From positions 11,572-75,571 of IMG/VR virus record IMGVR_UViG_3300025706_000022: a stretch of DNA of 64,000 bases. One strand, 5' to 3'. Every line of letters begins with the position of its first letter. The first letter of the stretch is position 1. The translations under genes and the position numbers were made by a program. Below are positions 1,016 through 47,989 of this stretch, piece after piece. Under the pieces are notes generated by a model. The model had not been told where the DNA came from and ran no database searches. It was given only the letters and a program-made list of their open reading frames with translations. Source of the stretch: a virus (Duplodnaviria > Caudoviricetes).

Positions 1016-1402
1016 TCAGATGAAATTATCTGATTTGATACCCATGTGAGCCAAGCTAATATCTGCATCAATATGTGGTATGATAGCAGTATTCATTTCA
1101 ATAAGCTTACGTAGTTTATCCTTAAGCTTCTCTGTTTCCTTTTGTTTAATACCAATAAAATCACGTTTATTTAAATCCTCAAGTATAGCCTTATACTCCT
1201 TAGTACTGCTCTTAAGTCTAGAAGATAGCTTTTCAAGACCCTCTAATGTTTGAATCTCCTCATTGGATGAAAGATGCATATCATTAATAACCTCTTCTTT
1301 AGTCATACCATACGCATCTGCAATAGCATCTACTTTAAAGTATATCTTACCATCTATTACTCCAGTAAACTTATCTGGCATACCCACTCCTATAGAAAAC
1401 AA
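1016..1402 (-). CDS. Hypothetical protein, possibly DNA-binding, with coiled-coil C-terminus
   Basis: 128-aa ORF overlapping the RNAP stop; fits operon packing. Confidence 0.55.
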   Translation of the reverse strand: MFSIGVGMPDKFTGVIDGKIYFKVDAIADAYGMTKEEVINDMHLSSNEEIQTLEGLEKLSSRLKSSTKEYKAILEDLNKRDFIGIKQKETEKLKDKLRKLIEMNTAIIPHIDADISLAHMGIKSDNFI

Positions 1403-3534
1403 TACTCAGCCTTAGCAACTTCTAGTATGTTGAAATTACCAGTCTTTACTTCCAAATCATCAATACCCAACTGTTTAAGAAGATCACCAAGAGGGTTATT
1501 GTAATACAACATAATGAAACTACTTCTGACGTCTTCATGTAGTTGCTCCATACCACCAGCTAATGTACCAAATGAATCATGTACAGTTACTAGTGGCTCT
1601 TTACAATAATGTGCAGTAAGCATTAGATGTGTTGCATCCATACTATGCACAATATTTGGTGGTGCTCCAGTCTTTTGTTTAGAAGGACTTTCGCGTTTAT
1701 TGTTATTATCTCGAATAGATAATGACAACGTATCATCGTAGTATGGGGCCTTGACCTTAGTTAGTTCACCAATACGATAATCTTGCACTACTGGAAAATT
1801 AACTATAGGGGTATTCCATTCCAAAGATTTACCTACATTACCTTTGCGTTTACCAGCAGTTTCAAATAACTTAAGTAGTGCTACACTGGTAGGCATAGCC
1901 TGTTCCATGGTATCGTACACAATCTGGCCTAACCAAATAGCCCAAGCCCTGTCCATGCCTTCTAAATAATCAATACCATGCTTAGGAGCGTCTTCAATAA
2001 TCTGTTCACCAGCCCCGAAACGGGTTACGCCATAGACCATTGTCATAACCCCTCTCTTAACAAGCTTTCTACGCTCATTAGCTTCTTTTACTTTCTTCCA
2101 ATAAATTGGTGCAGCTTCTTTTATATGAGCTTGATACTTATGCTTAAATTCCTTTACTTCTTCATATAAATCCTTAGTCTCATCCTTATCAGCAGAGTGT
2201 ATAATACCCTTACGTAGCCTACTGACTTCTTTTATTATCTCTTCTAGCTTATCAACATTATCTACCTTCATCTCATTTATACGTTTCCATACAAACTCAG
2301 AGATATACTTATAAAGATCTTGAACAGACTTATTAGCGCAAAGATTAGTATGATAAGCAGTTTCTTCATCTCTAGTTAAAGCTGAGAGATGTTGACTTCC
2401 ATTGTTGCTTCCGTCTACATAGCATATTAACCGAGACACAAACTTCTCTACATCCTCACCGCTAGCACGCCATTGCTGAATGAGAGCTATTTCGATACAG
2501 GCAGCTAGAAATTGCCAGGGAGAATCTGCATCCATCCAACCAGTAAACTCATCTGGGTTATTAGCATAGTTTAAGAATACGCCCATATTATCGTTAGCCC
2601 ACTCTACTCTTTGCTCTAATGATAATTTGTCAGATTTAACACCATAAGTGGTCTTACCTGCCCAAGTTGATGCTAGGGCATGCTTAATCCACTTTTCACC
2701 ATGAACACCAAGCTCCTTACCCTCAGCTAGTAGTAATAGACTCTTAGCTAAGTCAGTACTTTGTTCATTTAGAAAGCCAGTAGCGGGGTAACAACGGCCT
2801 CTAAAATCGAAGAAGTATTGATGATAAAAGACCTTGCTCTGTAGCTCTATACCTAGGTTTATGATAGTCTCAGCAAGTCTTTTCTTTGACTCTCTAGCCA
2901 CAGGGTTAGAAGACTTGTAGTACTCCTTAAACACCTTAGTATTATCCTTAAAATGCTTAAGAGCTACTGATAGAATATTAGTATTGATTACCCATCCTCT
3001 ATTGAATAATTTATGCATCATTTCAATAGCCATAGGCGTACTCGCCTCAGTCAACCTAGCCTTGCTCCTCCTTATTAGCTTCTTAATTGGAATAGGGCAT
3101 GGCGTAAATGTAGGCTTGATTGCTGCTGCTCTAGGCCTTTCATCCCATAGGGATTTAATCTTAGACTCTTCTATATTTACAAAGATACCTTCATTATCTT
3201 CAATAATAACTTCGAATAAACCTACTAAAGAAAAGCACTTTAAGAAGAAACATCCAGTTTTACCTGCTGCATCTGGGAAATTCTCAAAAGAACTACCTGA
3301 CTGCTTTAAAATAGTTTCACCTACAGTAGCAACGATAACATTTACATTTGTATTATCAGCCATTAGATATGTAGCTATCATATCAAATGCTATATCTGTA
3401 AGACGACTGATGCTTACGCCACTCTCTTCATTTAAAAAATCCAGGAGAGGTGATTCAAATTGATCATTAAATGTCTGACTTTCTACTGCTGTATACAGTA
3501 TCTCCCTCTTCACAACAAATTCTCCATTTGACAA
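1390..3534 (-). CDS. Single-subunit T7-family DNA-directed RNA polymerase, compact (714 aa)
   Basis: DFRGR at aa 243-247, motif A YVDGSNNGSQHLSAL, motif B RKLVKRGVMTMVYG (RxxxKx7YG), PNIVHSMDATHL, motif C VHDSFG, C-terminal YCFL. Confidence 0.95.
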   Translation of the reverse strand: MSNGEFVVKREILYTAVESQTFNDQFESPLLDFLNEESGVSISRLTDIAFDMIATYLMADNTNVNVIVATVGETILKQSGSSFENFPDAAGKTGCFFLKCFSLVGLFEVIIEDNEGIFVNIEESKIKSLWDERPRAAAIKPTFTPCPIPIKKLIRRSKARLTEASTPMAIEMMHKLFNRGWVINTNILSVALKHFKDNTKVFKEYYKSSNPVARESKKRLAETIINLGIELQSKVFYHQYFFDFRGRCYPATGFLNEQSTDLAKSLLLLAEGKELGVHGEKWIKHALASTWAGKTTYGVKSDKLSLEQRVEWANDNMGVFLNYANNPDEFTGWMDADSPWQFLAACIEIALIQQWRASGEDVEKFVSRLICYVDGSNNGSQHLSALTRDEETAYHTNLCANKSVQDLYKYISEFVWKRINEMKVDNVDKLEEIIKEVSRLRKGIIHSADKDETKDLYEEVKEFKHKYQAHIKEAAPIYWKKVKEANERRKLVKRGVMTMVYGVTRFGAGEQIIEDAPKHGIDYLEGMDRAWAIWLGQIVYDTMEQAMPTSVALLKLFETAGKRKGNVGKSLEWNTPIVNFPVVQDYRIGELTKVKAPYYDDTLSLSIRDNNNKRESPSKQKTGAPPNIVHSMDATHLMLTAHYCKEPLVTVHDSFGTLAGGMEQLHEDVRSSFIMLYYNNPLGDLLKQLGIDDLEVKTGNFNILEVAKAEYCFL

Positions 3535-27400: not shown

Positions 27401-28121
27401 CTTTGCCAACAGTCTGAGTTACCAATGCAACTTCACGTTGAGATGCTTGGAACTGCGCAGAGTTCTTAGCAATACGGTTATAAAGAGAAGCAGTAGCATC
27501 TAATGATGTTCTAGTAGAAAATGCTATCTCTGAAATATCATTAAATGCTCTTTTTGCTGCTACAGTAGAGTCTGTAACAAGCTTGATCTTAGTGTTTAGA
27601 TTCGTTATAGAGTCTGCAAACCTAAACATACCAGTAGCAGCGAATGCACTAGCAATACCACCGGCTGCAATTACTAACCCAGAAATAGCATTAGACGTGG
27701 ATTTAGCACTCTTATTAAGATTTGCTAGCTGGTCATTAATCTTCTTTAGTCCAGCATCTTGTTTAGCAACATTAGTAAGCGATGTATCTACATTATCTAG
27801 GCTCTTACTAAGTGAGCTAGCATCCTTAGAGGTAGTTGCAAGATTATTATTAGTACCAATCTTACTCAAGGCTGCAGCAGCACTAGTAGCAGCCTTAGCA
27901 GTGCTTTCGAGCTTTTTATCTGCTTGAGAAGCACCAATATTTGTTAGCTTGGAGCTAACGTTACCTAATTCCTTGACTGCTTTTTCAGCCCTTACTTTGG
28001 TCAGTTGTGAATCAACAGCAGCAACCTTTTTACTTATCTTAGCGAGTGCTGAATCTATAGCACTCAATTCACCAAGCGCTTGTTGACTTTTTGACCTTAC
28101 TTCTAGTTCGATAGCCATCAT
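21462..28121 (-). CDS. Tail tape measure protein with embedded lambda-R-type lysozyme domain (2219 aa)
   Basis: N-terminal tape-measure domain (LGQALSSGRLQGDELRSISEN); Ala/Gly-rich TM region; STAAGAFQI...SDFSAQSQ...WTSLPG at about 23180-23600; C-terminal FADGG...GPGTGRSDSILARVSNGEY. Confidence 0.92.
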   Translation of the reverse strand: MMAIELEVRSKSQQALGELSAIDSALAKISKKVAAVDSQLTKVRAEKAVKELGNVSSKLTNIGASQADKKLESTAKAATSAAAALSKIGTNNNLATTSKDASSLSKSLDNVDTSLTNVAKQDAGLKKINDQLANLNKSAKSTSNAISGLVIAAGGIASAFAATGMFRFADSITNLNTKIKLVTDSTVAAKRAFNDISEIAFSTRTSLDATASLYNRIAKNSAQFQASQREVALVTQTVGKAIAISGSSAQEAESAIMQLGQALSSGRLQGDELRSISENASGLASAIAEGMDVSIGRLREMGEAGELTATKVFDALLKQAGKVNGAFDNVGITFAQAFTNMNNAVKLLGVALGNIFSGLDLPRIINSWAISLGKFAKTLDWKFNILEARFLILITNIKEDLASITFDAVKLDLESFLPSFSTVTGFFDKFTKTIANMFKWLYDVVIGHSYWTDMITNIAKTSSGLLSGPLNSIKKFGTEVSNVFKGSFEEIGRMTKEADAYFKKKKAYDKEQEDIEVASQDFKGYAKGKYFDRSGDSDMFDKMLTQNARQYLEAGKLDNVSVKTQNTDQLEVYIKRALDLKKYAESQPDSDKNKELINSIDYDLKVLQSALVKEINKMYYVQSMQLESYKDQEKIQQDAVSAMGEIMSSGQLLARRDEFAKLGSILDKSRQEQNEIQNRYVKTIGKYNTTVRGDSDRRASEKSSLDQQATSAFSFAEIDLRKHIIGFESVFKMVTWFVTSINNAFKWLYDQVIGHSWWPDLINGIQTWAGALLGVPLGLVIKFIDLALNGFKTMALTVLKIFTNLKANLGAVFSKGSFLENMKVIFTYFGDLTSNVNSFKTALDAVYKLATDFVSLFKTPIEALDSTKDKESLSGIKFKKVQKGYIDPMIASLNKFFDPLIIKIKAFLAPIEAFFQPFVIAFKQAGGFANKKEGIIPGMTYKGGAVGVDTEAYVGAGPQRKSPMRMIGHDFLNALPESSQVPVFAAISTGLVLLINKLFGNFVPTTVLTQISTTIAAVVGVNIINDSTLKKAQNSITDWVLNTVNFITGFLFGSMKDSVTGMKDPLSILTTLAKLSLAFDSARKAILETAINIAKAFPAGGAAITGYGITKAADSLVLKRQEANLSSVNAQLPAAQQLATATRDANARAQAGLLAGSVMPQSAADAARAMTAAADAANKLATEQARLTASVSGLQTKMTDASKAFSEAAKKTRESIASGLANAGGMVGGTYGFAAGERIADKEGVSGTSKLALQVGAAAIGAAIGGAFMSVITSSLGAIMTALGALFLPMLAPIFLAIKVAFVGIFATGAAMLGVPVAALVAGIAALGAIAYGIWKNWDEIWPAIKGISKLVYDGIVAAWDWISGKFNAAIDFVKKVFNAGFPEGLFIFMDQIKAWSDGFWKAMSEFFTVANFTSMGQAIWNGILTGLKSIAGWFTGIFKKMGDGIKGATSYVLDIFVPSAAAAEMPKKGAVAGTSGDVGTQVTDAVKETSIKISDGVDGMVSSLTQQERLLTFLETLMKSEHSNSDATSGSAFNRIVGSGGYFDDESKHPNKVGFIDKQGRKSTAAGAFQITGTTYNDIAPKLGVSDFSAQSQTEVATALIKRAGALDDVLAGRFEIAIDKLKNVWTSLPGNTDPTQSQRKWDTIKQFMQEAAVNVVNGTAVIQKKLEEGANSLVDTVKGVGTRAVKKAAAVKDSAAEKFNNYSGGGNQFTPAGTSTPIATIKDKIENAVSLVASFEELNSALASANLPTLTEEDFKGLLDTPEVLDMITTSLSLMEQETDKLAVASDFAKNRISKNIGKLKGNIKDALPKNAEEEGAKTLQPTAFGKTFTENFKKEFNEGLVSAMQGKSSFKEVAQKMWETLSTQFLQQMTTSFMDNLLKGFYTMLDDFAGKGDAAFIKMGEKARTGIGSLFTSTKEEKPVTDISRPLSEVGQTSGQSKVGGVATEAFGQSKPGLSMAERLTGAGAAGTGGECVVKQAEAICGGKGGFMEALTGLGTTPGSEQSKMLAEQTAGMDDLNVEGFFETVSASFKTGFDGIISGAQDFGGSIMKVFESFDMGGLIDGVIEGAKMLFNVIKSFFADGGYVQAFAGGGAIRAFAGGGNTGKINGPGTGRSDSILARVSNGEYIVNAKSTALNRGLLDAINFGQAIVPGYANGGVINMGQELMNQKKNEPTPNSSTVNIAITGDISRQTRAEIIRMMPQITSGTRQIAYENGSR

Positions 28122-31382: not shown

Positions 31383-32567
31383 TTAGCTGTGGAAGATCGG
31401 GAGAATACCCAGGGTAAGAGCAGAGGTAGCTTTACGAACAAAAGCACCCTTATCACCAACAGCAACAGTAGCACCAGACAGATCACGCATAGCAGAACCA
31501 CCAGTACCAATCTGCATGTAATCTGCATCAGCAACGAAGTTGTCTTCATCACCGTACCAAGAATAACCACGCGGATGGACGATATAGCCCCAACGATACC
31601 AAACATCAGTAGTACCACCACCCATAAAGGCAGATGGAACGTGGCCAATCTCAACCGGCATAGGAACAGCCAATTGGTTAAATGCCAGACTGTTAGGCAT
31701 AACAATAAACGTGGTCTCTGGTCCAACCAGATCAACACCAGCGCCAGTATTAATGGCAGTACGTTCAGCAGAGGTCAGGCCTTGATTAGCACGTGTAATA
31801 ATCAAGCGGAATTTACCGGAGAAAATGGTTTCAAATTCAACCATACCATCGGTAACACGAGTTTCATCAACCAGATTAGCAGAACGAAGCGAAGCCAACA
31901 CCTTGGGCGATACAACAAGGTAGGCATAGGCAGGCTCATAATCCTTCCAACCCATACCCATAGCGGTAAGGAAGGCTTCAGCGCGAGCAGCACCTTGTTT
32001 AGCAGCATCAGCATCAACGATAAGCTTATTCAAGCCCATATCAACGTACATACCGTACTTCTGATCTTCTGGGTTATTATCAAACGTTTGGCCACCAAGA
32101 CCAGTTGCACCAGAGCCAGAACCAGCACCATTCAGCAGCTCAGAGATAGCAACACCCTTCAGGACAGACAAGAGTGCGTTATGCTCATCTTGAGTGCGAG
32201 TCTCAGCAAAATCACGACCAATCTTAGCCAGGCCGTCTTCTTGCGTAACAACTTGCTTCATATTGACTTGTTCAGCACCATGCGTGCGAACCGTCTTAAT
32301 GTACTTAGCATAGTTTGAAGACTGGGTAGTCTTAGTACCAGCAGTTGCATCAGTAAGCGAAGCAACGTTGATAACAGGCTTCAGCGGCTTTTTCCAACGA
32401 AGTTGACCAACAAAAGTTTCAGTATTGGTGTCAATGTCGGCTTGAGCACCGGCAATACCAGTACCAACCAGTTTCTTAGCATTGGTGTATGCTTCATCGG
32501 AGTAGGCAGAGATAGCCTCTTGCAGAACCGAATCAGTTGCACCGGGGATATTAGTACGAGCAGTCAT
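31383..32567 (-). CDS. Major capsid protein
   Basis: 394 aa after scaffold; strongly biased codons; TDVWYRWGYIVHPRGYSW C-terminal pattern. Confidence 0.85.
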   Translation of the reverse strand: MTARTNIPGATDSVLQEAISAYSDEAYTNAKKLVGTGIAGAQADIDTNTETFVGQLRWKKPLKPVINVASLTDATAGTKTTQSSNYAKYIKTVRTHGAEQVNMKQVVTQEDGLAKIGRDFAETRTQDEHNALLSVLKGVAISELLNGAGSGSGATGLGGQTFDNNPEDQKYGMYVDMGLNKLIVDADAAKQGAARAEAFLTAMGMGWKDYEPAYAYLVVSPKVLASLRSANLVDETRVTDGMVEFETIFSGKFRLIITRANQGLTSAERTAINTGAGVDLVGPETTFIVMPNSLAFNQLAVPMPVEIGHVPSAFMGGGTTDVWYRWGYIVHPRGYSWYGDEDNFVADADYMQIGTGGSAMRDLSGATVAVGDKGAFVRKATSALTLGILPIFHS

Positions 32568-32586: not shown

Positions 32587-33315
32587 TTATTGCCTTTGGT
32601 TTGGTAGTTTACCTTCGGCAGCAAGTTTGAGAACCTCTTCTTGCGTTCTAGCAAATAGAGATTTGGGAGTACTATTAGGCGTTCCAGTAGGGGTTTGAGT
32701 TCCGCCACCAGAGCTAGCCTTTGGCTTAAGCAAGAAGCTATTAGCCTCGTCTGCAACAAAAGTAGAAATAAAGTCCTTAATCGAAACACCAGAGCGATGA
32801 ACCCAGTTGTTTTTATCATCTTTGATTACTTGGCCGATAACCTCATGAAAAGCCATATCAGCTGCTTTTTCATTACGGAACTCAGTAGAACGTAACAGAT
32901 CACGGACCTGACTATCACGAGTAAGTTCAAGAACTCGTTGTTCTAATGTAGTATGCTTACCAAGTAAATCATTGTAAGCAGCATCTTTTTCTACGAGCTT
33001 CATTTCGTATACTTCCTTGTGCTTACCTTCTTCTTCCAATTTCTTAAGCTGAATCTCGCGTTCCTTCTTCTCAAGCTCCTCTGCCTTTTTGAGTGCAGAA
33101 TCACGAACAGAGTAGGCGTTATCAAGTTTAGTCTTGATATCTTTTAATTGTTCAGCAACCTTTTCAGCAACAAGCTTTGAAATCATGTCCTGATCGGTGT
33201 TGCCACTTTTATTTTGGTCATCATTCTTACCGTCTTGATTCTTACCAGCATCCTGATTAGTACCATCAGCATTCTGATTCTTATCTTTCTGGTTGTTTTG
33301 ATCTTCAGTACTCAT
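32587..33315 (-). CDS. Capsid scaffolding protein
   Basis: N/D/Q-rich N-terminus, long coiled coil, GGG/TP linker, short basic C-terminal helix; probable start MSTEDQ with RBS AGGAG. Confidence 0.8.
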   Translation of the reverse strand: MSTEDQNNQKDKNQNADGTNQDAGKNQDGKNDDQNKSGNTDQDMISKLVAEKVAEQLKDIKTKLDNAYSVRDSALKKAEELEKKEREIQLKKLEEEGKHKEVYEMKLVEKDAAYNDLLGKHTTLEQRVLELTRDSQVRDLLRSTEFRNEKAADMAFHEVIGQVIKDDKNNWVHRSGVSIKDFISTFVADEANSFLLKPKASSGGGTQTPTGTPNSTPKSLFARTQEEVLKLAAEGKLPNQRQ

Positions 33316-33481
33316 TTTACTACTCCTATGGGACACAGCCCGGTTAATTGTGCTATAGCTACATTCTATAGCATACTGCAAAGAAAATATAGTGGGAAAC
33401 CAATTGAGGGGACAGTACCTCTAAAGAGGCGGGAGAGAAGGCTTATCAGCCATTACATGGCCTATCCCACTATCAAAACTA

Positions 33482-33790
33482 TTAGCCTATTCCATAGAAG
33501 CCTTTATCATGCTTCCAAAAATCAGGCGGTATATCTTCTAGAATATCCTCAGCTTTGAGAATATCCTGTTCAGTCATAAGTCTTCCACCAACTTTACTTT
33601 TTCCAGCTATTGGAATAATACCTTTTTCAATGGCCTCTTCCAAATACTGATCATAAAGCTCTTTAGGTAATCCACGCTCACGCAGAAGATCTAATGTAGC
33701 CTTTACTGTATTTTTCGTAACAGCATCAGCATACATTTTTCTAATAGCCGTCTTAGCCTTAATCATATCACCAGCATTAGTGAAGAAAGC
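33482..33790 (-). CDS. Exon 3 of MuF-RNAP fusion
   Basis: Begins AFFTNAGDM after intron-terminal G at 33791; completes motif C (IHD|AFF). Confidence 0.85.
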   Translation of the reverse strand, partial: AFFTNAGDMIKAKTAIRKMYADAVTKNTVKATLDLLRERGLPKELYDQYLEEAIEKGIIPIAGKSKVGGRLMTEQDILKAEDILEDIPPDFWKHDKGFYGIG

Positions 33791-34729
33791 CGAAATATTC
33801 AACAAAGGTCGTTAGTCTTTGCCCGTTACTGTCGAGTTAGTTAATAATTCTTCCAAGTATTACCAATTCGTATTTGACGAATGGTAGAAGGGTGCGATCC
33901 AAATTCTACAGCTATTTCTGCATCTAACTTTCCATTTTTGATACATTCTCGTATATAAGGTACATCCTCTGCAGTTATCTTTCTAGTCCTAGGTGCACCA
34001 TTATAACGACCAGGGATAGTCAGACCTAGATGCTTCCAGTTGTCACCAATCCTAATAGCGTTTATAGATTGCCTAGTAACACCGTATTCATCTGCAATCT
34101 CTTGATCTTTTTTGCCAGCAAGCATTAATTTAATTATAGTAGGTATTTCTGACTCTACTAATACCGACTCAACCCTATGTGAACCGCGTGGCATTAACCC
34201 AGTATCGTATGCGTGCTGAACATTTTCACTGCGAGTTGCCCATTCTAGATTAATTACATGGTTATGTAACCTATTCCCATCAATATGATTTACATCTGAT
34301 TTAGAAAAGGGATTTGGTATAAAAGCCTTTGCAACCAACCTATGTAGCTTTTCTGTGCGTCTAACACCATTGTATGATATATGAAACTGCCTATAACCAC
34401 CTACGATATTACCTAATGTGATGCACCCATTAGAGCCACAATATAGTCTACCATGGTTACTAATAGAATAGTTTGCATCACCAACTTGTTTCCATTCTTC
34501 TTGCATGTTTACTCCTTGTGCTCGACAGCACTGCTGCATATTACTATGCAGACTAGACTATATCTTCAAAGTAAATACATGTATTTACGATGTCCCCCGT
34601 TTCCACTCACTTGAGTGTACTGGCGCAATGCCATAGTCGTTACACCTTCCTTATTTCTAAGGATTGGCTCGGTATTGTCCTAACGAAGGAGTTTCACCGA
34701 ATTAGAGGGATTTAACCACAACAAAATTT
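33791..34729 (-). mobile_element. Group I intron 2 (IA2-like, 939 nt) inserted in RNAP motif C
   Basis: P1 CCACGAU/GUUGUGG with U-G at the splice site; P AAUUCGGUGAAA; R AACGACUAU; S AAGAUAUAGUC; P7.1/P7.2 hairpins; terminal G; HNH ORF in the P9 region. Confidence 0.9.
33841..34506 (-). CDS. Intron-encoded NUMOD4-HNH endonuclease (intron 2)
   Basis: KLHRLVAKAFIPNP...VNHIDGNRLHNHVINLEW; two C-terminal HTH-like repeats; start MQEEW with RBS AAGGAG. Confidence 0.9.
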   Translation of the reverse strand: MQEEWKQVGDANYSISNHGRLYCGSNGCITLGNIVGGYRQFHISYNGVRRTEKLHRLVAKAFIPNPFSKSDVNHIDGNRLHNHVINLEWATRSENVQHAYDTGLMPRGSHRVESVLVESEIPTIIKLMLAGKKDQEIADEYGVTRQSINAIRIGDNWKHLGLTIPGRYNGAPRTRKITAEDVPYIRECIKNGKLDAEIAVEFGSHPSTIRQIRIGNTWKNY

Positions 34730-35833
34730 ATCGTGGATACTAGTTGTTTCTATACCATTACGCTTACCCCATAAAGCAAAGTTCTTAACTAGAGTAGCAT
34801 CGTTAGAGTGATTGCCATTGACGGCATATGCCGTTCTAGCAGACACTGCATCAGCTACTTCATTTATTTTATTACTCTTATTAACTAACTCTTCAAACCA
34901 AGTGGGATCAGTTTTATTATCTACTTGAATAATATTAGTGATCCAGTTACCATCAGCATCCTTATAATTAAGCCTTTCCTCAAATCGTTGGGTATAATAT
35001 TGCTCCAACACACTACCATCAAGGTTCACCCAAGGCACATGTGTCCAACTCTTAGGTTGCTTATTGGGTAACCCCAACTCAGCTATATCAATATCTTTGT
35101 AAACATCACCCACCTGAAGCTTAATATCAAACTTCTTACCAGTAGGTCTATAGCCCTTGTCCTTAACCCCAAATAGTATATCAGAGATGGTACTATCGGG
35201 TTTATATCCAGGTATACGTTTAAGGATTTGTTCTCGATAAGATACCTTTGGATCTATTCCTAGTATCCAAGCTAGCACAGGATGAGGCTTAGCCCCTTCT
35301 TTATACTCACCAAATGCGGTTTTCTTCATAAGGCTTACCCAATCAAACTCAGCTTTAGAAGGCTTTGCTGTTAACAGAAAGTCTTGTGCCAGCCTACCGA
35401 AGAACTTAGTAAAATCATTCAAAATAGGTACACGATTAGACATATGCTCAGACATGATTGCACCTATCTGAGCAAAATCTTTGGGCGTAACTACTTCATC
35501 ATAATCCCTAGTAAGCTTCTCTACAAAATCCTTTGTTTTAGGATCAAGGAACCATAAGTCAGACATCAAGTCATCACCTGGCCTAGTTCCACTATCAAAT
35601 ATGTCTTTGACCTGTTTACGAAGCTGCATTAGTTCGTCTGCAGTATCTTGATCCCAACGTGCTATTTTAGCAGCACGGGCAGAGATTTCACCCAATACAG
35701 CATCGCGTTCCTCAGCTTTAATTACTAAGACACCATCATCTTTACCTAAAGCCTTAGCTAATTTCTTTTCTACATTCATGGTAGCAGTTCTCTGTCCGGC
35801 GCCGTATAGAGAGACCATGTTATGCGCTTTTGA
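34730..35833 (-). CDS. Exon 2 of MuF-RNAP fusion
   Basis: Starts SKAHNMVSLYGAG, ends NGNHSNDATLV...SIHD. Confidence 0.88.
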
Positions 35834-36790
35834 CAATGTGTTAACAAGGGGTCGTTAGTCCCCTGTCATAATTTATTAGTAGTTCTTCCAGGTATTTCCT
35901 CTACGAATTTGGTTTATGGTTGCAGTTGCTACACCAAACATAGGTGCAATATCGCAATCACGTAATGTGCCAAATAAGCTTCGAATAACCGGTATATCTT
36001 CTCCAGTTAACTTCTTAACTGGGCCATTACCTATAATCGGCTGTCTTTCAATAAATCGCCAAGTACGGTTACATCGAATATCATCAATTGTATTTGGGGC
36101 CACGTTATACTTTTTGGCAAGAGTAATATTTCTATCACCAGCCTTTAAGGCATCAATAATTTCATGAACTTCTGTTTCTAGAAGGATATGCATATAGCTA
36201 CCTTCTCCAGAAGCAATTAACCCTAATTTTACAGCATGCTCATTATTCTCTGTAGGAGTACACCACTCTAGGTTACTAGACTTATTATTAAGCTTATTAC
36301 CATCAATGTGGTTAGCCCAGGGCTTACCATCTACCCTAGGTATAAAGGCCCTAATAACCAATTTATGAACATCGATAGTTATCCTATCCTTACGAGAGGT
36401 AAACTGTATACTAACTTGTAAGTATCCTCTAGCAGTAATGAAGGGATTAAGAATGAAATCAGTGCTATTGTTGCGAATACGCCCCAGATTGCTGACACTA
36501 TACATGCCTTCTGTGTCTGGGATAATACGAAATTCTTCTGTCATAATGACTCCATGGGTGTGTAAATTATGCTGCATATTACTATGCAGATCAGACTATA
36601 TCTTCAACAAACAATGTTTGCTGTCCCGCGTTTCCACTAGACTTCTAGTGTATGAGATTCATAATCCGTTCTGGACCGTATTCTCTAGTCGTTGAACCTT
36701 CCAAAGAGTCCCCTCTAAGGCTTGGCTGCTGATTGTCCTTTAACGAAGGAGTTTCCAGCAATTAACGGGATTTTACAAGGCCACAAGTTT
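35834..36790 (-). mobile_element. Group I intron 1 (IA2-like, 957 nt) inserted in RNAP motif B
   Basis: P1 AAGGCU/GGCCUU; P AAUUGCUGGAAA; Q AAUCAGCAG; R UUCAACGACUA; S AAGAUAUAGUC; P3 UCCCGU/GCGGGA; terminal G at 35834. Confidence 0.92.
35876..36544 (-). CDS. Intron-encoded NUMOD4-HNH endonuclease (intron 1)
   Basis: DVHKLVIRAFIP...ANHIDGNKLNNKSSNLEW; two C-terminal HTH-like repeats; start MTEEF with RBS GGAG. Confidence 0.9.
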   Translation of the reverse strand: MTEEFRIIPDTEGMYSVSNLGRIRNNSTDFILNPFITARGYLQVSIQFTSRKDRITIDVHKLVIRAFIPRVDGKPWANHIDGNKLNNKSSNLEWCTPTENNEHAVKLGLIASGEGSYMHILLETEVHEIIDALKAGDRNITLAKKYNVAPNTIDDIRCNRTWRFIERQPIIGNGPVKKLTGEDIPVIRSLFGTLRDCDIAPMFGVATATINQIRRGNTWKNY

Positions 36791-39700
36791 AGCCTTCCTT
36801 AAATCCTTCTCGCTTAGCCCCAATCTTTCATTAAGCTTTTTAAACCTAGGATCATTAAAGGTCATAGAAGCAATCTCGTCATAGAGACGCCGCTTCTGGT
36901 TAGTAGGAACAACATTACTAAGTTCTGCTAATTGCTTATTCTTAGTAGACAATGCAATAATCTGAGCACCAGAAGATGAAGCATCTTGCTCTAGAGCTAC
37001 TTTAATCATATAATTATCAAGTGGAGTAAGATCTTTGTAACTGCCACCTAAAAATTTATCAATGCGGTATTGTTCAAGGGCAAGCCTAAATAACTTTCCC
37101 TGTTCTTCAGCATCCGCCATCTGAACGATCTTAGATTCAAGGATATCACGAATATCCTGAGGCTTTTGTCTTTCTATACGTTTACCTAATAAAACAAGAT
37201 CAGCACGCCATTTATCTGCAATCTTCTGCCTACCAGTTTGAGAGAGACCATTAAAGCGTCCTTCAAACTCATCACTTAGGCCACCTAAGAAACCACCTAT
37301 CTGGTCTTGTAGGTTATAATATCCATCAATACCTAAGGGTTTAGCTTCTGGTGTATTTAAGAAAGGACGAAAGGACTCACCAGATTGTGGTCCAATGTAG
37401 CCGCTATCATATATGCGACCGCGATGATCAATGAAAGCGTGATTACTAAAAGACATATCGTTCTTAACATAATGTTCCATAGCCTTAAATCTATCGTATG
37501 CATCACCACGAGCAGTCATGTGATCACGATAATGATTCAAATCATTAAAATACTTAGCCTTACCCTTATCGTCTTGGAAATCCAATAACTTTCTCGTAAA
37601 CCCATAAAACTCAGGATCTACTTTATACTTACTATTGCTATACCAATTAAGGGCATCTGCTAATGGTTCGTCAATTAGCTCTGCAGGTATTTCAGTGAAA
37701 CTACTTGAAGATGTAATTGGTATTTGTGTATCATATCCGCCCTTAGCAAAATATGTTTTGAACCCAGGTTTAATATATAGTTGGTTATCATATCTATTAT
37801 TCACACCAATACGATAGCCTACATCGATAGCACGATTAAGGTATGAGTAGTGCTTAATACGAGCATCGGTAATCCTAAGATTTACACTAAATGTATCGTA
37901 GTATTGACCAAAGTATTGACCACTCATACGACTACGCATACGCCTTTTCTTAACACCAAAAGTATCTAGTGTATAAAATCCTACTTTTTGAGCATAATCT
38001 AAGATTTCTACACCTGCATCATACCATTCTTTTTTAGATCCACGAAAATTAGTAGTATTAAATAGATCTCTTCCTAATTCAATGGCTAGTTGATCCCTAT
38101 CAGGGGCATCATCCATTGCTAACCGTTTAGCAAACCTCAAATAGAACTGCTGAGTTTCAAACTTACCTAATCCCTGAAATACTCTACGCATTTGAAGTTT
38201 CATAGGTAATTGTGTTTTTAAGAAGATATCTACTGTAGAACGTAACTGTAGTGCTATAACGGGTAATTGTCTAGCTTCCCATAGATTACGCTCTTTAATA
38301 TTAGCAATAAAATTCTTGCCCAAATCATCTAATTGTATAGGGCCAAGAACAGGATCAAGATACTCACCTTGCTTAATCTTGTAGAAGAAGTCAGAATTAT
38401 TTCTTAACTGTGTCTCAATAAACTCTGACACGTTAGTAACACTATTCTTCATTTCTGAGTTAAGAACAGCCTTAAGATTACCCCAAGGCTTTCCTTGTTT
38501 ACGAAAACGCTCAAATGTTACACGAAGATTATCAGTGACAACTGCAGCCTCATTCATGCCTACAGACTTCTGTATTTCTATCTTGAAATCTTGTAGGAAC
38601 TTCTTATCATCTGCGGTTAATACTGTGCTTTCATCAATAAGCCTAACAGCGCGTTTATCAGCAGCCATATTAGGTTGATAGATGCGGGCATCCTCTCTAC
38701 GCTTAGTAATAGGATTATATATTAGCTGATCTTCAGTTGGAGGGCTGTTTAGAACCCTATTCTTAGTACCAGCCTTTACATGAGGTAGAATACCACGATA
38801 GTTAGTAACACTTAAAGTACCATTTAGCTCACCAGACTGTAGTTTATAATACTCTACGAGTTTGCTAACGGCCTCTTTATCTCTAAGTATTTCAAGAGGG
38901 GATGTATATCCCAGTGTAAGTGTGTCCAGTCTTTCTTTTGCATTCGCGAATACTTTACTAGTAGCTTCTACGCTACCGTTATAACCACCTGCTGTATTAT
39001 TATCACCAGTTAGTAGCTTAAGCTCATTGAGACCTACACTAGCACCCTTAGGTGTTATAAACCTCTCAGCTGTAAGCTCATTATTTTGGAACATCTTAAG
39101 GCGATGCATATCTCCTAGATGCATTAGCTGAATTCTATCTGGTTGTTTCTTTAACCAATCATTATAAGAAATAGTGTCATAAGGTGTTCCAGTAAAATAA
39201 CTAGAGGCATACTTATCATAGGCTTCAATCTCTGCTTCCGACATTCCAGCTGTATTACGGGCTCTAGTGGCTCTTACAGAATCAACTTTTGCTAAGTCTG
39301 CCCAAGCCTTAGGAACAGGTATTGTAGTAGACCTACACCTATAATGTTGTGGTGGTAAATGACCAGTATCAGAAACTGGATAGATATTTCCATCCATATA
39401 TCTGCATACTGGAGTAGTTCTAGTGTCTAATACCGCGGCGTATTGGTATCCTTTCAAGTATTTGCTATTCTCTGCATATACTTGCTGGTCTACTTGTGCA
39501 TACACACTAGTAATCCCGGTAATAACAATACCTTCACTATGTACACGAGTAAGATTAAACGTTTTAGATACACGTTTAATCATTTGTTCTTCAGTTAAGC
39601 CTTCAGCTAGGCCGCCTCTAATAGCAGCCTCTATACGCTTACGCTCATTTAAGCCAATGCCTTTCCAACCTTCTGCAAGAGTCTTATTAGCATAGAGAGG

Positions 39701-40063
39701 TTGTGTTAATACTATCTCGCTAGCAATAGCACGAGTAGGTCTCTCAGGCTCAAAGAAATCTCTGAATGACTTATTGAGAGTATCTAAAGAACTTACTTGT
39801 GCTTGATTACCAAACTCAATAAAACTTTTTGCATTATGGCGATACGCTGTTTCTGTAAATCGCCTTATCTCTGCATCTGTTGCAGGGCTGATCGGCATTT
39901 CTTTTGAATAGTTTCCAGGGAGTATTGCGAGCATTCTAGTTTCATGGTCATCAACTAATGCTAATGTTTGTGCGGTAACTCGCTCTGTATAAAGTCGAGT
40001 CATAGCAGCATCATGTATGGTTTTATCACCAGCAACCTCGACCGCTGTCTTTTCTACTTTCAT
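36791..40063 (-). CDS. Exon 1 of MuF (SPP1 gp7-like) minor head protein fused to a T7-family RNA polymerase
   Basis: MuF core YQYAAVLDTRTTPVCRYMDG...PPQHYRCRST and WLKKQP...LG extension; then DHRGRIY, motif A LEQDASSSGAQII, and RKA start of motif B. Confidence 0.9.
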
Positions 40064-40137: not shown

Positions 40138-41688
40138 TTATTTTGCTGGAGGCTTAGCAGCTAATTTACTAGCTGTATTAAGACCATCCTCATACTTCTG
40201 TGCAGAAGGTACAATATTCTCATCTTCGTTAATTTCGTCTTGAGCCTCATCATCATTATACTCAGGACTAAGCAACTCATTAGCCTTAAGAAGACGAAGC
40301 CATTCACTACGAGGTATAAGACCTTCTTTGTAAATCTCAGTCATCAGTCTAATATAATCTTGACCAATAGCTGTAGGATCAAAATCTGGACTTAATGTAA
40401 ATATAACATCATTATTTGTTAATCCAAGGTCATAACGACGATTAAGCATATACACAATAATACCACTAACTACCTCGCTGAGCTTAGTATTGAGTGTACC
40501 AAGAGTAGCAACTTGAGCAGCGCTACGAATAGTAAGTGCTACACCAGATTCAGCCGTTTCAGGTGCTAAGAATCTAATCCCTAGCTTAGCTAACTCATCC
40601 ATTTTGGATGCAATAGCTGATTCTAAATCTTTAAGGGCTTCCGTAGGTGGTGATAAAGAACCAATCTCATCACCCTTACGTAAACGAATCCAAGTGCCTA
40701 ACCCCTGATTAACGATTTCTGTAAAGTCCTCATCAGGCATATCACTAGCAACCCATGGAGTATATGTAGCAGCGCCATAAAGTAAGTGGTTACGCCTGGA
40801 CATTACATTATAGAGTGCTTGTTCCTTGTCCACAAAAGTTGTGATATAAGGCTCAATAGCATCAATATTGCCATTAGCAGGATAAGCAGGAATCGTTGTC
40901 ATCAGCTCACCATGCATCCTGGGCTGGATAAGGCTAACTTGTTTAAATCCAGAGGATTTACTAGGTTGAGTCTGACCTTCAATAAGAACTGGGTTAGCTT
41001 CACCTTCAAGCTCAAATACACGTATTTGATAAGCATTGTCAATTAATTCATGAACCCAGATAGTATCCACCACATATGGATGGAATGCTAGTGGATCAAG
41101 GTATTTATCCACATAACCTCTTACAATAATCCTACTAAGAACTCGTTTTCCATTTATAGTAGTAGTTTGCCAATTAATAACATTTTCAGCTTGCCAAATT
41201 ACTGCATATGGCTTAACTTGCTTAAAATCGGCTGAATCCATTGCTGCTATCTGTTCTTCAGATAACATTGGGTAATCAACATAAATCCATGCTCTACTAG
41301 TTTGCATTTCTTCATTAAGAAGTTTATCTAAGAATGCTATTAAACTACCACCCTCAACTGTAAAATCAGATTTAATCCATTCCATTGCCTCTTCCGAGAC
41401 TTCTTTCTTATATTCTATTTGTGGAGGCTTCCTGAGAAGACCACCGATAACTACAGAGATAAACTGGCTAGTAATGCCAGGTAGCTCAGCCTCTGCCTTA
41501 AAGAAGGCATACTGCTCTAGGCTCATTGTTGGTGAAAATGGAAGTAAGTAATTCTTAGCATTGGGTAGTATATCAGCATCCTTAACATATTGCTGACTAT
41601 GAGCAAAGGCTCTACACTTTTTCCATGTATCTACCAGAGAGTCATAAGAATCACATGGTTCATTAACTTGAGTTTTAGCCTGTGCCAT
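40138..41688 (-). CDS. Portal protein (DUF4055-like)
   Basis: 516 aa between TerL and MuF; LHYGA-like NHLLYGAATYTP, AESGVALTIRSA. Confidence 0.8.
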   Translation of the reverse strand: MAQAKTQVNEPCDSYDSLVDTWKKCRAFAHSQQYVKDADILPNAKNYLLPFSPTMSLEQYAFFKAEAELPGITSQFISVVIGGLLRKPPQIEYKKEVSEEAMEWIKSDFTVEGGSLIAFLDKLLNEEMQTSRAWIYVDYPMLSEEQIAAMDSADFKQVKPYAVIWQAENVINWQTTTINGKRVLSRIIVRGYVDKYLDPLAFHPYVVDTIWVHELIDNAYQIRVFELEGEANPVLIEGQTQPSKSSGFKQVSLIQPRMHGELMTTIPAYPANGNIDAIEPYITTFVDKEQALYNVMSRRNHLLYGAATYTPWVASDMPDEDFTEIVNQGLGTWIRLRKGDEIGSLSPPTEALKDLESAIASKMDELAKLGIRFLAPETAESGVALTIRSAAQVATLGTLNTKLSEVVSGIIVYMLNRRYDLGLTNNDVIFTLSPDFDPTAIGQDYIRLMTEIYKEGLIPRSEWLRLLKANELLSPEYNDDEAQDEINEDENIVPSAQKYEDGLNTASKLAAKPPAK

Positions 41689-41703
41689 TGCATTACTCCT
41701 AAG

Positions 41704-41982
41704 TTAGCGAACTCCGGAGCGCAGCATCTGGTTAAAGGCATCAATTGTACCATTAAACATAATGCCACCACATCTAGCTTCAATAGTATCTTCCCCAGTG
41801 GATAGAATAACCCAATTAGAGGGGATACGCTCGTTATTAGTCAGTGTTACAGGCGTACTATTGGCTGGTTTAGGAGGTGCAATAGGCAACTCAACAGCCA
41901 CCTCTTCCTTAGTAATGTTTAAAATAGACTCAAGGCTAGCAACATCCTTGGCGGCAATTGTTTGTAATTCTTTTGCAGTCAT
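41704..41982 (-). CDS. Hypothetical protein
   Basis: 92 aa with RBS GGAG; leader duplicated at 45421-45454. Confidence 0.55.
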   Translation of the reverse strand: MTAKELQTIAAKDVASLESILNITKEEVAVELPIAPPKPANSTPVTLTNNERIPSNWVILSTGEDTIEARCGGIMFNGTIDAFNQMLRSGVR

Positions 41983-42009
41983 CGATTTTTACTCCGTAAA
42001 ATTCTGTGT
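41976..42009. repeat. 34-nt leader repeat (second copy at 45421-45454)
   Basis: 32/34 identical; contains TTTTAC-GGA-GTAAAA hairpin over the RBS and the ATG. Confidence 0.85.
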
Positions 42010-42026
42010 GAACATACAATATCCTG

Positions 42027-43421
42027 TTAGAAAGCAAATCCTCTACTAGAAGATCTACGGTGTTGAATTGGCCAATGATAATCAAAGTAATACCTGATAC
42101 CATCAGAGAAGTGCTCTACATCTTGACTCTTGTCAATCATAGCAGTATCACTATTCTTATCTACCCACTGGGTACGAGCTAGTGATTCTATTACTGGTCT
42201 GCATTTAGCAGATACAAATGCATATCTATTACCAGGCTTTTTAGTACGAGGGTTACTAGCAGTCTTAAATCTAGCATTAGTAGCATTAACACTATCTACG
42301 ATAGGTGGATGTGCTGATTTAGCTAGTACACTAAACCCATACGATTCTAATATAGTAAAGTCTGTGGTACCTACTACAGCGCTAGTTTTAGCAGAACGAC
42401 CTGAAGGATCAGGATAGCAGTAGATAGAGCTAGGAGGCCTGTCACTGTTAACAAATCTTCCATAAATAGTGGCAGCCAGTTGTTCTGTATCAGCACTGCC
42501 TTGGATATAATCAAAACAGCCAGTAAACTCACCACGCTTAACCCAGACACTACTACACTGTTTCCGCACGTTAAAGTCGATAGCAATATGCACAGGCTCG
42601 CCATCACCTGGAGTAATAAGGCCTTCTGGTACAACATTATTTTTCCTATCAAAACAGTAAAATACATTATTACCCGAATCTTCAAACCTGGCAAGATATT
42701 CTCTTGCAAATCTGATCGGATCCATATTATTAGAGCTACGCTCTACTTCCTCTACATCTAAATATGGTGATTTGGTGTAGTCGTAATGATAGCTCTTCCA
42801 ACGATCATCTGTTTGGCTATTATTAAATAAGTCAAAGAAAGTATCATAACCCTTAGGTGTGCTAATACACATAAACCTACCAGGATTAACTTCCATCTGC
42901 TTACCAGTATATTCAAAGATCTCTCTAGCAAACTCAGCGGCCCTTTTAGGGGACCACCGAGTGTCTATAGTAGGCATAAGAATAGATTCAATCATATCCT
43001 GCTTAGCTGCTTCTTTCATGTCAAAGGAAGTAAGCTCGTCTACTAGCACGAAGTTATTACCCTTACCGCGTTGACGCTCAACAGCTTCACCTGATACTAA
43101 TCTTAGCTCTACATGATTAGGGAATCTAAAATACCCTTTATCTCTACTGTACTGTACTGCATGTGACTCTAAGCCAAACTGATAGGCCAACAGAGGGTAA
43201 TAAATATCCACTGTCTGGCTATATGTAGGGCATACGATAATGGCATTCTTATTAGGAATCCATTCTGGTAGCATGCTTAGCTCACCTACTATCTGTGAAG
43301 CTGAGGCAGCCCCTTCTACTGACTTGCCCCAACCTCGAGATGCACATACTACAGTATGTCTATGATCTTTCTTAACGAATGTATCATGAAACACTTTTGA
43401 TTGAGTAGGGTGTAATTTCAT
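42027..43421 (-). CDS. terL: Terminase large subunit
   Basis: Walker A ASRGWGKS, Walker B FVLVDE, ISTPKG, nuclease IAIDFN, YPDPSG, HFSDGIRY. Confidence 0.93.
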   Translation of the reverse strand: MKLHPTQSKVFHDTFVKKDHRHTVVCASRGWGKSVEGAASASQIVGELSMLPEWIPNKNAIIVCPTYSQTVDIYYPLLAYQFGLESHAVQYSRDKGYFRFPNHVELRLVSGEAVERQRGKGNNFVLVDELTSFDMKEAAKQDMIESILMPTIDTRWSPKRAAEFAREIFEYTGKQMEVNPGRFMCISTPKGYDTFFDLFNNSQTDDRWKSYHYDYTKSPYLDVEEVERSSNNMDPIRFAREYLARFEDSGNNVFYCFDRKNNVVPEGLITPGDGEPVHIAIDFNVRKQCSSVWVKRGEFTGCFDYIQGSADTEQLAATIYGRFVNSDRPPSSIYCYPDPSGRSAKTSAVVGTTDFTILESYGFSVLAKSAHPPIVDSVNATNARFKTASNPRTKKPGNRYAFVSAKCRPVIESLARTQWVDKNSDTAMIDKSQDVEHFSDGIRYYFDYHWPIQHRRSSSRGFAF

Positions 43422-43435: not shown

Positions 43436-45427
43436 TTATGGTAAAGTAACTCCTGTCTTATCTGCAACCCATGTTTCAGTGTCGGTGATTTCCTGTGTGG
43501 CGGCTGTACGTCCTAGGAAAATCATGGAGTATATGTTTCCTGTCACTGGAAGCGATCCGGTACTGCGACTACCAACATTCAAGGCAAAGTTTCCAAATGG
43601 CCCGTCACCTGCTGATGCCTCACCAACTTGACTAGTCGCCTCAACAACACCATTAACGCGAAATATGATCTCAGTCGCATTTGTTGGTTGTGAGTAATCC
43701 AAAGCAACTGTAGCAACCTCTGTTATCGGTGGCGCAGACGTATTAGCAAGCGCAATAGTCTGACCACCAGACCCCGCTAGAGCAGTCTCGTATCCACTAA
43801 CGGAATTTCTACCAGCAAAGTAGAATCCTCCCGTTGTGTCTGGAGGCCCAAACTCTGCATAACATTTATACCCTGAGTCATTCGGCCTAAAAACCCCCAA
43901 GAATAGGGATGCCGCACTCGTTCCAGACAAATCGAAACTCGCCGAACTTACCCTATCATCCACCCCGTCGAACTGTAGCCACTTTGGTAGACCTACAGTA
44001 TTATAAACATCGTTTTCAACACGTTGATATGGTCCAAATTCAGCACCTTTTGCGATTTGAATACCCCACACATAGGCACCAGATGCCCCATCTCCATTAT
44101 ATGTATCAGTCAACCCATCTGGACTTAAATACACGTCAAACCATACACCATTGTCGGCAAGTGAAATTGGCACTGTCATTGTGCATAAGTACCAGCCATT
44201 AGGGAATGCCGTTATAGTTGCATTGGTAGGCGCAGCATAATAATCACCTAACACGGCACCACTACCAATTAGCTCGAAGTATTTGCCAAAATAAGAAGAA
44301 TAGTCCCCATAAGCATACAATATAAAGTAATTACGTCCATTCGGTTTAACCCAAGCTGATACTGTATGCGACCCTTCACCTGTTGGCACAATGGTATTCC
44401 TGGTTACACCAAAGTACGTATTAAGATTAGTGCCCTCGGTCATCAGGTCTGCGGTTGCAGTACCATCGGGGGCTGTTACGGCATTAGGCGTAATAGTTAC
44501 ATGTGTTAATACATCAAAATGTGCAGTGATATTTTCAGAATACGATACTAAGTTAATACGCTCTTTGTAGATCGGGCGCTTGGCGGCGGTGGCTTGGGAG
44601 GCGTGGTTGTTGCGGCCTGACTTGTCCAGAATCAGTCCAACAGGCTGCCCATCCGCAGTGACCGGCGTAGTGCCTGCGCTGTCTTGGAACATGGTGCTCA
44701 GGTCGGACGGGTCGTACCATACACCTTGAGCACCATCCTCAAACAATTCTGAAGGATAGTATACATAAGCAGCAATACTCATACTATTAGATGTTGCATC
44801 AACAGAGCCAGCAGCATTAGTCCCTGTAACATCACATGCAAGGGTATGACCTTTATCAGTATCTAGTATAGTATATGTACTAGATCTTTCTCCAGTTATA
44901 TTTACACCATCTAAAGTCCATTGGTATGTATATGTTGGAGTAGGATTACCTGTCCATGTCCCTTGTGTGCAAGTGATTACTTCACCTGCCTCAGGAGTAC
45001 CAGATATAACAGGAGCTACAGTATTTACTGGCAACTCTGCAGGAATACTAATAGCATTAGACCAAATACGAGTATCACCAATAGCGTTAGTTGCAATTTC
45101 TTTACAACGAATATTTGCAGCAGCATCATTTTCTACTACTACATAGGTAAGGCCAGTAGCACCATCAATATTAGTACCATTGTGTTGCCACTGATGGGCA
45201 ATAGATACTGCTCCTGTCCAAGTACCTGGAGTACAGGTTAATGTAGAGCCAATTGCAGATGCGCCGGTTACAACAGGGCGTGTAACATTAACTGGGGCAC
45301 CAGGAGGCTCATTGTCTAGGCCTATCTTACCATATCCAGCTAATATACCCACATTATCAATTTCTGATTCATCTGAGTATGCACTATCTACGCCTGTAGC
45401 TAGGATATCATTCCTGGTAACAGTCAT
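43436..45427 (-). CDS. Tandem Ig-like domains plus LamG/carbohydrate-binding-like domains (decoration or adhesin)
   Basis: Two PVN..P.(V/I).G....G...TCT.GTWTG repeats; YDPSDLSTMFQDSAGTTPVT; LQFDGVDD. Confidence 0.7.
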   Translation of the reverse strand: MTVTRNDILATGVDSAYSDESEIDNVGILAGYGKIGLDNEPPGAPVNVTRPVVTGASAIGSTLTCTPGTWTGAVSIAHQWQHNGTNIDGATGLTYVVVENDAAANIRCKEIATNAIGDTRIWSNAISIPAELPVNTVAPVISGTPEAGEVITCTQGTWTGNPTPTYTYQWTLDGVNITGERSSTYTILDTDKGHTLACDVTGTNAAGSVDATSNSMSIAAYVYYPSELFEDGAQGVWYDPSDLSTMFQDSAGTTPVTADGQPVGLILDKSGRNNHASQATAAKRPIYKERINLVSYSENITAHFDVLTHVTITPNAVTAPDGTATADLMTEGTNLNTYFGVTRNTIVPTGEGSHTVSAWVKPNGRNYFILYAYGDYSSYFGKYFELIGSGAVLGDYYAAPTNATITAFPNGWYLCTMTVPISLADNGVWFDVYLSPDGLTDTYNGDGASGAYVWGIQIAKGAEFGPYQRVENDVYNTVGLPKWLQFDGVDDRVSSASFDLSGTSAASLFLGVFRPNDSGYKCYAEFGPPDTTGGFYFAGRNSVSGYETALAGSGGQTIALANTSAPPITEVATVALDYSQPTNATEIIFRVNGVVEATSQVGEASAGDGPFGNFALNVGSRSTGSLPVTGNIYSMIFLGRTAATQEITDTETWVADKTGVTLP

Positions 45428-45470
45428 CGCTTTTTACTCCGTAAAATGCTGTGTAGACATGATTATCCCC

Positions 45471-45770
45471 TTATTTACACGTAGAAACGTATACTTTAGC
45501 ACCAGTACCACTAATAGAATCAAGCTTAGCGCGTACTTGTTGCCAAGGAGCAGCTACAGCAAAACCATCAGAAGCATTATCAGTACCTGACAAAGTAATT
45601 GTACCAATACTTAGCCAGCCCACACCATCATTACTTACTTGAATCTCAACTGATGCTGCAACAGCTCCAGCACCAACTACACTAGCCTGTACAGACCAGT
45701 TAATTGTTTCAGAGTTGAATGCATCACCAGTGATAGGGGCAACTGCATCTTTAAGAATGTATTTTTGCAT
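45471..45770 (-). CDS. Small beta-rich protein, probably structural
   Basis: 99 aa, VEIQVSNDGVGW motif. Confidence 0.55.
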   Translation of the reverse strand: MQKYILKDAVAPITGDAFNSETINWSVQASVVGAGAVAASVEIQVSNDGVGWLSIGTITLSGTDNASDGFAVAAPWQQVRAKLDSISGTGAKVYVSTCK

Positions 45771-45799
45771 GATATTTCCTTGAGAGTTGTGAAGGGTTA

Positions 45800-46267: not shown

Positions 46268-46437
46268 GTTATCTCCTTTCTTAGTAGATCATGAGATTAT
46301 TGGATTTTCGTAGCTTGCCCCTCTAACATATAAATATGCAGAAGGGATCATTTGGCAAAAATAAATAAGAAAATTCCACATACCATATACCATAACACCC
46401 ATATAGGGCATCATAGTATACGGTATGTGGTATTGCC

Positions 46438-47982: not shown

Positions 47983-47989
47983 ATAATCT

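Follow-up and report, generated by a model that had tools for sequence, protein, structure and literature searches.

A single gene of a tailed phage, situated at positions 33482 to 40063 on the minus strand of the 64,000-nucleotide stretch of DNA analysed here (the window), encodes a MuF-type minor head protein which, once two group I introns are removed, continues into what its sequence and predicted fold mark as a complete single-subunit RNA polymerase (RNAP) of the T7 family. The window covers positions 11,572 to 75,571 of IMGVR_UViG_3300025706_000022, a complete IMG/VR virus record of 75,571 bp (Caudoviricetes). The parts of the gene are as follows.

33482..40063, minus strand: whole MuF-RNAP gene, three exons and two introns; spliced product of 1561 amino acids (aa)
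36791..40063, minus strand: exon 1, aa 1-1091; MuF, middle region, RNAP N-terminal domain, thumb, and palm through motif A, up to R1089-K-A of motif B
38999..39808, minus strand: MuF / SPP1-gp7-like head-morphogenesis region, aa 86-355; Pfam core aa 143-248 = 39637-39320; signature LPPQHYRCRS
38354..38998, minus strand: conserved middle region between MuF and the RNAP fold, aa 356-570, without assigned fold
37415..37429, minus strand: DHRGR motif, aa 879-883; counterpart of T7 D421-R425
36968..36988, minus strand: motif A, QDASSSG, aa 1026-1032; D1027 is the counterpart of T7 D537
35834..36790, minus strand: group I intron 1, within motif B, after the codon of A1091; ribozyme core, then an open reading frame (ORF)
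35876..36577, minus strand: intron-1 ORF, NUMOD4 and HNH homing endonuclease, 233 aa
34730..35833, minus strand: exon 2, aa 1092-1459; K1093...Y1101-G of motif B, fingers with a large insertion, H1433, and H1458-D1459 of motif C
33791..34729, minus strand: group I intron 2, within motif C, directly after the codon of the catalytic Asp D1459
33841..34539, minus strand: intron-2 ORF, HNH homing endonuclease with helix-turn-helix, 232 aa
33482..33790, minus strand: exon 3, aa 1460-1561 and stop; rest of motif C (AFF), C-terminal palm, end FYGIG

Continuity of the fusion and nature of its two halves

The minus strand carries all genes of the region, and the interval 40063-33482 appears there as five ORFs, in the order 1096 aa, 233-aa NUMOD4/HNH, 374 aa, 232-aa HNH and 107 aa. 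Rfam recognises group I introns (RF00028) at 36842-36572 with 99.7 bits and at 34797-34534 with 89.2 bits (gathering score 50), and no others in the whole 75.6-kb genome. As read from the DNA, the P1 pairings are AAGGCU/GGCCUU in intron 1 and CCACGAU/GUUGUGG in intron 2, and both introns have a U.G wobble at the 5' splice site and a terminal G. The exons are free of stops and join in frame at both junctions, so that covariance match, P1 with U.G, terminal G and in-frame exon joining are present in each case. The intron cores are related (79% identical, with compensatory changes), and the two endonuclease ORFs are 39% identical. Inteins were considered and rejected, the insertions being Rfam group I introns that lie outside the reading frame. 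Because the introns cut motif B and motif C, an active enzyme requires the splicing of both.

The continuity of the spliced product is best seen in its alignment with an intron-less metagenome protein of 1563 aa (P0002): residues 3-1561 match at 72% identity over 1562 columns with 3 gaps, without a break at either junction (LRKA/SKAHNMVS and IHD/AFFTNA, the slash marking the splice point). The initial annotation had given the gene the same coordinates, two introns and a product of 1091 + 368 + 102 = 1561 aa; Rfam, the splice sites and P0002 agree with it on all of these, and the colinearity with P0002 shows that the fusion is real and intact after splicing.

In the N-terminal half, Pfam Phage_Mu_F (PF04233) matches aa 143-248 at 50.9 bits (cut-off 29.6), and phrog_241, 'head morphogenesis', matches aa 86-521 with E 1e-55. 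The earlier assignment of a full MuF protein to the first ~350 aa is thus supported by both Pfam and PHROG. Its direct passage in frame into the polymerase is not, as the RNAP fold starts near aa 570, beyond the conserved middle region. The AlphaFold2 (AF2) model of aa 1-600 was poor (predicted local distance difference test, pLDDT, 63; predicted template modelling score, pTM, 0.32), and with this poor model Foldseek found no fold match at E <= 0.001 for MuF and the middle region. Prediction of a complex between the portal and MuF aa 1-360 gave a score of 0.00, which counts neither for nor against binding.

From about aa 570 onwards the chain is, as judged from its motifs and a structural model, a complete T7-family single-subunit RNAP, divergent in sequence and with every catalytic residue kept. 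The motifs listed in the initial annotation (DHRGR, QDASSSG, RKA/SKAHNMVSLYG and IHD/AFF) stand where it had placed them, with RxxxKx7YG spacing as in T7. Motif B consists of R1089, K1093 and Y1101-G1102 (T7 spacing R+4=K, K+8=Y), H1433 corresponds to T7 H784, and motif C contains H1458-D1459. DHRxR, EQDASSSGAQII, R..K..YG and HDAF are invariant in 41 homologues. The fused RNAP is apparently active.

A 41-sequence alignment served to model P0002 aa 400-1563 with AF2 (pLDDT 79, pTM 0.74). All 50 listed top matches of this model in Foldseek were T7 or mitochondrial RNAPs, with E about 1e-17. VIA-align placed it on T7 RNAP residues 34-883 with Z 29.6, root-mean-square deviation 7.5 and 614 residues aligned, as compared with Z 25-28 to mitochondrial RNAPs and Z 16-19 to the N4 mini-virion RNAP (mini-vRNAP). 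The T7 match spans model residues 172-1164, corresponding to the full protein from about aa 570 to its C-terminus, with ~180 extra residues between motifs B and C relative to T7 RNAP. Structure prediction, proposed beforehand as a check on the polymerase fold, therefore recovered that of T7 RNAP, in the model of an orthologue.

Sequence searches reflect the divergence of this half. Intron-less orthologues (57-75% identity) exceed the gathering scores for both Phage_Mu_F and RNA_pol (PF00940; 32-48 bits, cut-off 22). Of the profile search suggested earlier for both halves, the MuF part thus succeeds in the window itself and the RNA_pol part in the intron-less orthologues, but not in the exons of the window taken singly, which stay below the RNA_pol cut-off. 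Against PHROG the separate exons gave weak RNAP matches only (phrog_414), and exon 2 searched with phmmer against PDB sequences gave only chance matches. The 41-sequence profile aligned T7 RNAP among the PDB sequences at the correct motifs, with a weak E of 0.02-0.06.

Relatives of the fusion and intron invasion of its gene

A survey of MuF-RNAP fusions, which the initial annotation had called for, found 379 IMG/VR contigs encoding a relative; a word-index search returned at least 430 homologues, most of them of ~1540 aa with both Pfam domains. When the N-terminal half of the RNAP part (aa 555-1091) was compared by phmmer with 1.84 billion representatives, 102 clusters were obtained and canonical T7-like RNAPs were not reached. 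Every full-length match in this search had 500-890 residues ahead of the matched part, and MuF was found in all five divergent full-length members tested. Throughout the family, down to 27-30% identity, the two parts always remain joined. In all 29 loci with sufficient flanking sequence the portal gene is the immediate upstream neighbour, and the order is portal, fusion, scaffold, capsid.

Deposited phages gave no megablast match to the locus. Proteins of two phages in GenBank are unrecognised members of the family. One is gp28 of roseophage DSS3_VP1 (DSS3VP1_00028; 30% identity), labelled 'minor head protein-like protein', whose gene, unlike that of the window, has no intron. DSS3_VP1 belongs to Naomviridae, has siphovirus morphology and carries deoxyuridine (dU) in place of thymidine (PMC8323127). 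The other is found in EBPR siphovirus 1, deposited in 2011, where gp47 and gp49 are 47-51% identical to the fusion and represent one MuF-RNAP gene (JF412302.1 25771-31144) split at motif B by the HNH gene gp48. The GenBank labels read 'head protein' for gp47, 'HNH endonuclease' for gp48 and 'hypothetical protein' for gp49, and the fusion went unrecognised.

With respect to uracil-containing DNA, a dCMP-deaminase-family gene lies outside the window at 327-773 (minus strand) of the record; the dCTP deaminase of DSS3_VP1, which feeds dU-DNA synthesis, belongs to the same family. A YfbR-type dTMP phosphatase, ThyA and ThyX were not found, the absence of ThyA and ThyX being uninformative.

Interruptions of the gene were surveyed in the 119 closest homologues. 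The gene is uninterrupted in 72, and 37 end inside motif B; these 37 and 2 more end at no fewer than five different codons (at least window-protein positions 1091, 1094, 1098, 1100 and 1102). Another 4-5 homologues end after AVNG (position 1431), just before the His matching T7 H784, and the window adds an insertion site directly after the catalytic Asp of motif C. About one third of the close homologues are thus, on the evidence of where their reading frames end, interrupted inside conserved polymerase motifs at several codons, which is a new observation. Since the insertions recur at varied codons, mobile elements must have entered these motifs many times. The pattern fits homing into DNA that is unable to drift, in a gene that the phage cannot lose; the introns would then be homing elements targeting the most conserved DNA of an indispensable gene, and their repeated invasion of polymerase motifs provides a natural series of homing sites.

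Five more HNH/NUMOD4 genes without an Rfam intron nearby were noticed, at 46438-47082 and 55165-55887 of the window and at 877-1416, 2840-3331 and 8255-8938 of the record. One of these five is directly upstream of the family A DNA polymerase ORF (record 6288-8258), and the DNA polymerase gene may be split.

Genome context, second polymerase and promoter searches

The neighbouring structural genes and a second polymerase gene are listed below.

40138..41688, minus strand: portal gene, directly upstream of the fusion; expected docking partner of MuF
32587..33381, minus strand: scaffold gene, directly downstream of the fusion
31383-32567, minus strand: major capsid gene, after the scaffold
1390..3534, minus strand: free-standing T7-type RNAP, 714 aa (PF00940 E 1.7e-76; phrog_414 E 1e-112); presumed non-virion partner

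The gene order is large terminase, portal, MuF-RNAP, scaffold, major capsid protein, head-tail adaptor. The slot between portal and scaffold, described in the initial annotation as that of SPP1 gp7/MuF, was borne out, the gene following directly after the portal in all 29 loci mentioned above. The genome is that of a siphovirus, with a 2219-aa tape measure protein, a J-like tail fibre and a major tail protein. The tape measure gene (21462-28121, minus strand) contains an internal lysozyme-like segment at aa 1505-1672 (phrog_90), and its length implies a very long tail. Two related G+C-rich hairpins resembling terminators lie at 3552-3580, just ahead of the free-standing RNAP gene, and at 21432-21460, just after the tape measure gene.

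The free-standing RNAP has an N-terminus shorter than that of T7 RNAP, and phrog_2166 (N4-like RNAP) is also among its matches. Its gene is situated near those of a DNA polymerase and of a protein with a weak match to phage single-stranded DNA-binding proteins (E 8e-4, below the Pfam cut-off). The likeness between the fused and the free-standing RNAP is only remote (hhalign E 0.002). Both polymerases were found together in each of the 12 searchable, near-complete related genomes of 60-82 kb, as well as in the window and in DSS3_VP1, 14 genomes altogether. In two related genomes, G006 (18123-20177) and G007 (40438-42273), the free-standing RNAP resides in frames of 926-994 aa with a Pfam match in two parts, which suggests an in-frame insertion, possibly an intein.

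Searches for promoters gave little. The 11-mers and 12-mers shared among intergenic regions were only the ribosome-binding site, and a 16-mer best-match search performed no better than on shuffles. A 21-nt motif, TCCATCTTATATGATATAGAA, occurs in three copies on the minus strand (7548-7568, 8130-8150 and 10239-10259) with 0 to 3 mismatches, always ahead of small genes; three matches were seen in none of 100 shuffles. It is a candidate phage promoter, tied to neither polymerase. In positions 44001-64000 sigma-70-like sites are rarer than in shuffles (45 vs 68.3 +/- 7.9), which is no more than a weak hint at early transcription without host RNAP.

Possible function of the fused polymerase

Virion RNAPs are known from N4-like, crAss-like and phiKZ/AR9-like jumbo phages and from P23-45. 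With gp50, the virion RNAP (vRNAP) of N4, the product described here shares a T7-family RNAP module enclosed in a larger virion protein made late, and the two genomes share a second, smaller phage RNAP for later genes, as in the N4 relay from vRNAP to RNAPII. Unlike the fusion, gp50 comes from a short-tailed phage, comprises ~3500 aa and lacks MuF; at its N- and C-termini it carries injection and encapsidation domains of its own. The fusion has 1561 aa, MuF at its N-terminus, nothing after the RNAP and a siphovirus context; phrog_2166, matched by the free-standing RNAP, is not among its matches. The differences in size, domain set and genome type, together with the structural distance, place it outside the N4 vRNAP family, and N4-like virion RNAPs occur only in N4-like phages according to Iyer et al. 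2017 (PMC5512222).

The Thermus phage P23-45 is likewise a siphovirus with a polymerase fused to a virion structural protein and with an additional non-virion RNAP, but its fused enzyme is a two-barrel RNAP of unrelated fold, and the carrier is the tail tape measure and not a head protein (bioRxiv 10.1101/2022.12.01.518664). MuF toxins and effectors share with the fusion the N-terminal MuF carrier, the C-terminal enzymatic cargo and a gene adjoining the portal; their cargos, however, are small (ADP-ribosyltransferases, nucleases, RelA/SpoT-like enzymes), are accompanied by immunity genes and come mostly from temperate phages (PMC5576092, PMC5512222). Here the cargo would be a 1000-aa RNAP serving the phage, and the next gene is the scaffold, so that the protein is not a MuF polymorphic toxin. 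SPP1 gp7 has in common with it the Pfam family, the slot after the portal and, presumably, portal-mediated entry into the procapsid, but gp7 has a single domain of ~300 aa and carries no cargo. T7 RNAP has the same fold over residues 34-883, DxRGR, motifs A, B and C and the R/K/Y spacing of motif B; identity is ~15%, and the RNAP of the fusion sits behind 570 residues.

One plausible explanation of this architecture would be that a single polypeptide does two jobs, those of a minor head protein and of an RNA polymerase. By homology with SPP1 gp7, the MuF module would dock on the portal during procapsid assembly, leaving a few copies inside the head. By analogy with N4 and P23-45, the fused RNAP would be made late from the head operon and packaged; after entering the next host together with the DNA, it would transcribe the first genes independently of host RNAP and then be succeeded by the free-standing RNAP. 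Such a use seems the most likely one because the gene is part of a late head operon and an ordinary, separate RNAP has its gene near those for replication; with a second RNAP in the same genome, the fused one would be free for a special role. For the entire chain, in which the enzyme is packaged, delivered and transcribes the first genes, we find the balance tilted slightly in favour. Packaging alone is somewhat more likely, and the role of MuF as an 'ejection tag' is probably the weakest link. SPP1 gp7 is targeted into the procapsid interior via the portal (gp6) in 'a few' copies, and it binds DNA and affects DNA entry (PMC6316719). Reuse of this portal-mediated strategy by MuF-fused toxins has been suggested (PMC6316719, PMC5576092, PMC5512222), and delivery of MuF cargo is 'proposed' only (PMC6316719, PMC5512222).

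Several points weigh against a delivered virion polymerase. Unless its cargo is removed by cleavage or the fusion as a whole acts in another way, MuF may remain in the capsid, and a protein of 175 kDa must pass a long siphovirus tail. In the 2006 work of Vinga et al., SPP1 gp7 was reportedly not detectably co-ejected with DNA in vitro. No promoter set assignable to either polymerase was found in the window, the paper on Naomviridae makes no mention of the fusion protein, two papers on DSS3_VP1 make none of RNA polymerase, and the sub-threshold RNA_pol scores of the window's single exons belong here as well. The late operon, the failure to find an early promoter class and the reported behaviour of gp7 would all suit a protein that is packaged and then remains at the portal, or whose RNAP half works only in the producing cell, for instance in late transcription, with host RNAP reading the early genes. 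We regard this as unlikely: the free-standing RNAP already serves transcription within the cell in every genome tested, and an enzyme confined to a DNA-filled head would find neither substrate nor function there; yet the fusion persists over deep divergence, with invariant catalytic residues.

T7 RNAP pulls the phage genome into the cell by transcribing it, and T7 and mitochondrial RNAPs make replication primers. Thus, a delivered RNAP could have as its main task either the mechanical entry of the genome or priming of replication. A fold nearer to T7 and mitochondrial RNAPs than to N4 vRNAP points in this direction, as do the DNA binding of gp7 and its effect on DNA entry (PMC6316719); no result separates such a task from early transcription, with which it is compatible, and we consider it a rather improbable main function. 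It is scarcely credible that mobile elements have broken the polymerase half, leaving it a decaying relic, and that only the MuF part is still of importance. Two insertions in catalytic motifs might give this impression, and the unspliced exon-1 ORF alone would still yield a MuF protein. However, each of the two insertions shows a complete group I core, a correct P1 pairing and in-frame joining of its exons. The exons contain no stops, their product shares 72% identity with an uninterrupted orthologue, and the catalytic columns are invariant.

In the full-text literature outside subscription journals, no description of a MuF-RNAP fusion was found, and the impression given in the initial annotation that it is uncharacterised is confirmed to that extent. 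The word 'polymerase' is never used by Jamet et al. 2017 on MuF toxins (PMC5576092). It is conceivable, and we would put it only a little short of an even chance, that tailed phages have in MuF-RNAP fusions a third, independent means of bringing their own transcription into the cell, with a T7-type polymerase that is head-internal, docked on the portal, ejected through a long non-contractile tail and the start of a two-polymerase programme without host RNAP, in a clade of hundreds of environmental siphoviruses and the uracil-DNA Naomviridae.

Each of the earlier virion RNAPs brought to light another strategy for takeover of the host cell, and useful enzymes have come from some of them. The fused polymerases described here form a distant and compact branch of the T7 family, and the design is, by sequence comparison, common to hundreds of uncultured phages and to the cultured Naomviridae. 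The fusion bears directly on whether MuF cargos really leave the capsid, and the idea is testable now, since the Ruegeria phages DSS3_VP1 and DSS3_PM1 are in culture. If the proposed delivery is true, it would be the first case of a MuF cargo that serves the phage's own gene expression and is not a toxin, and every known dU-DNA phage group would bring its own RNAP. It would also mean that siphoviruses have arrived at a widespread solution made of two familiar parts, a MuF carrier and a T7-type polymerase.

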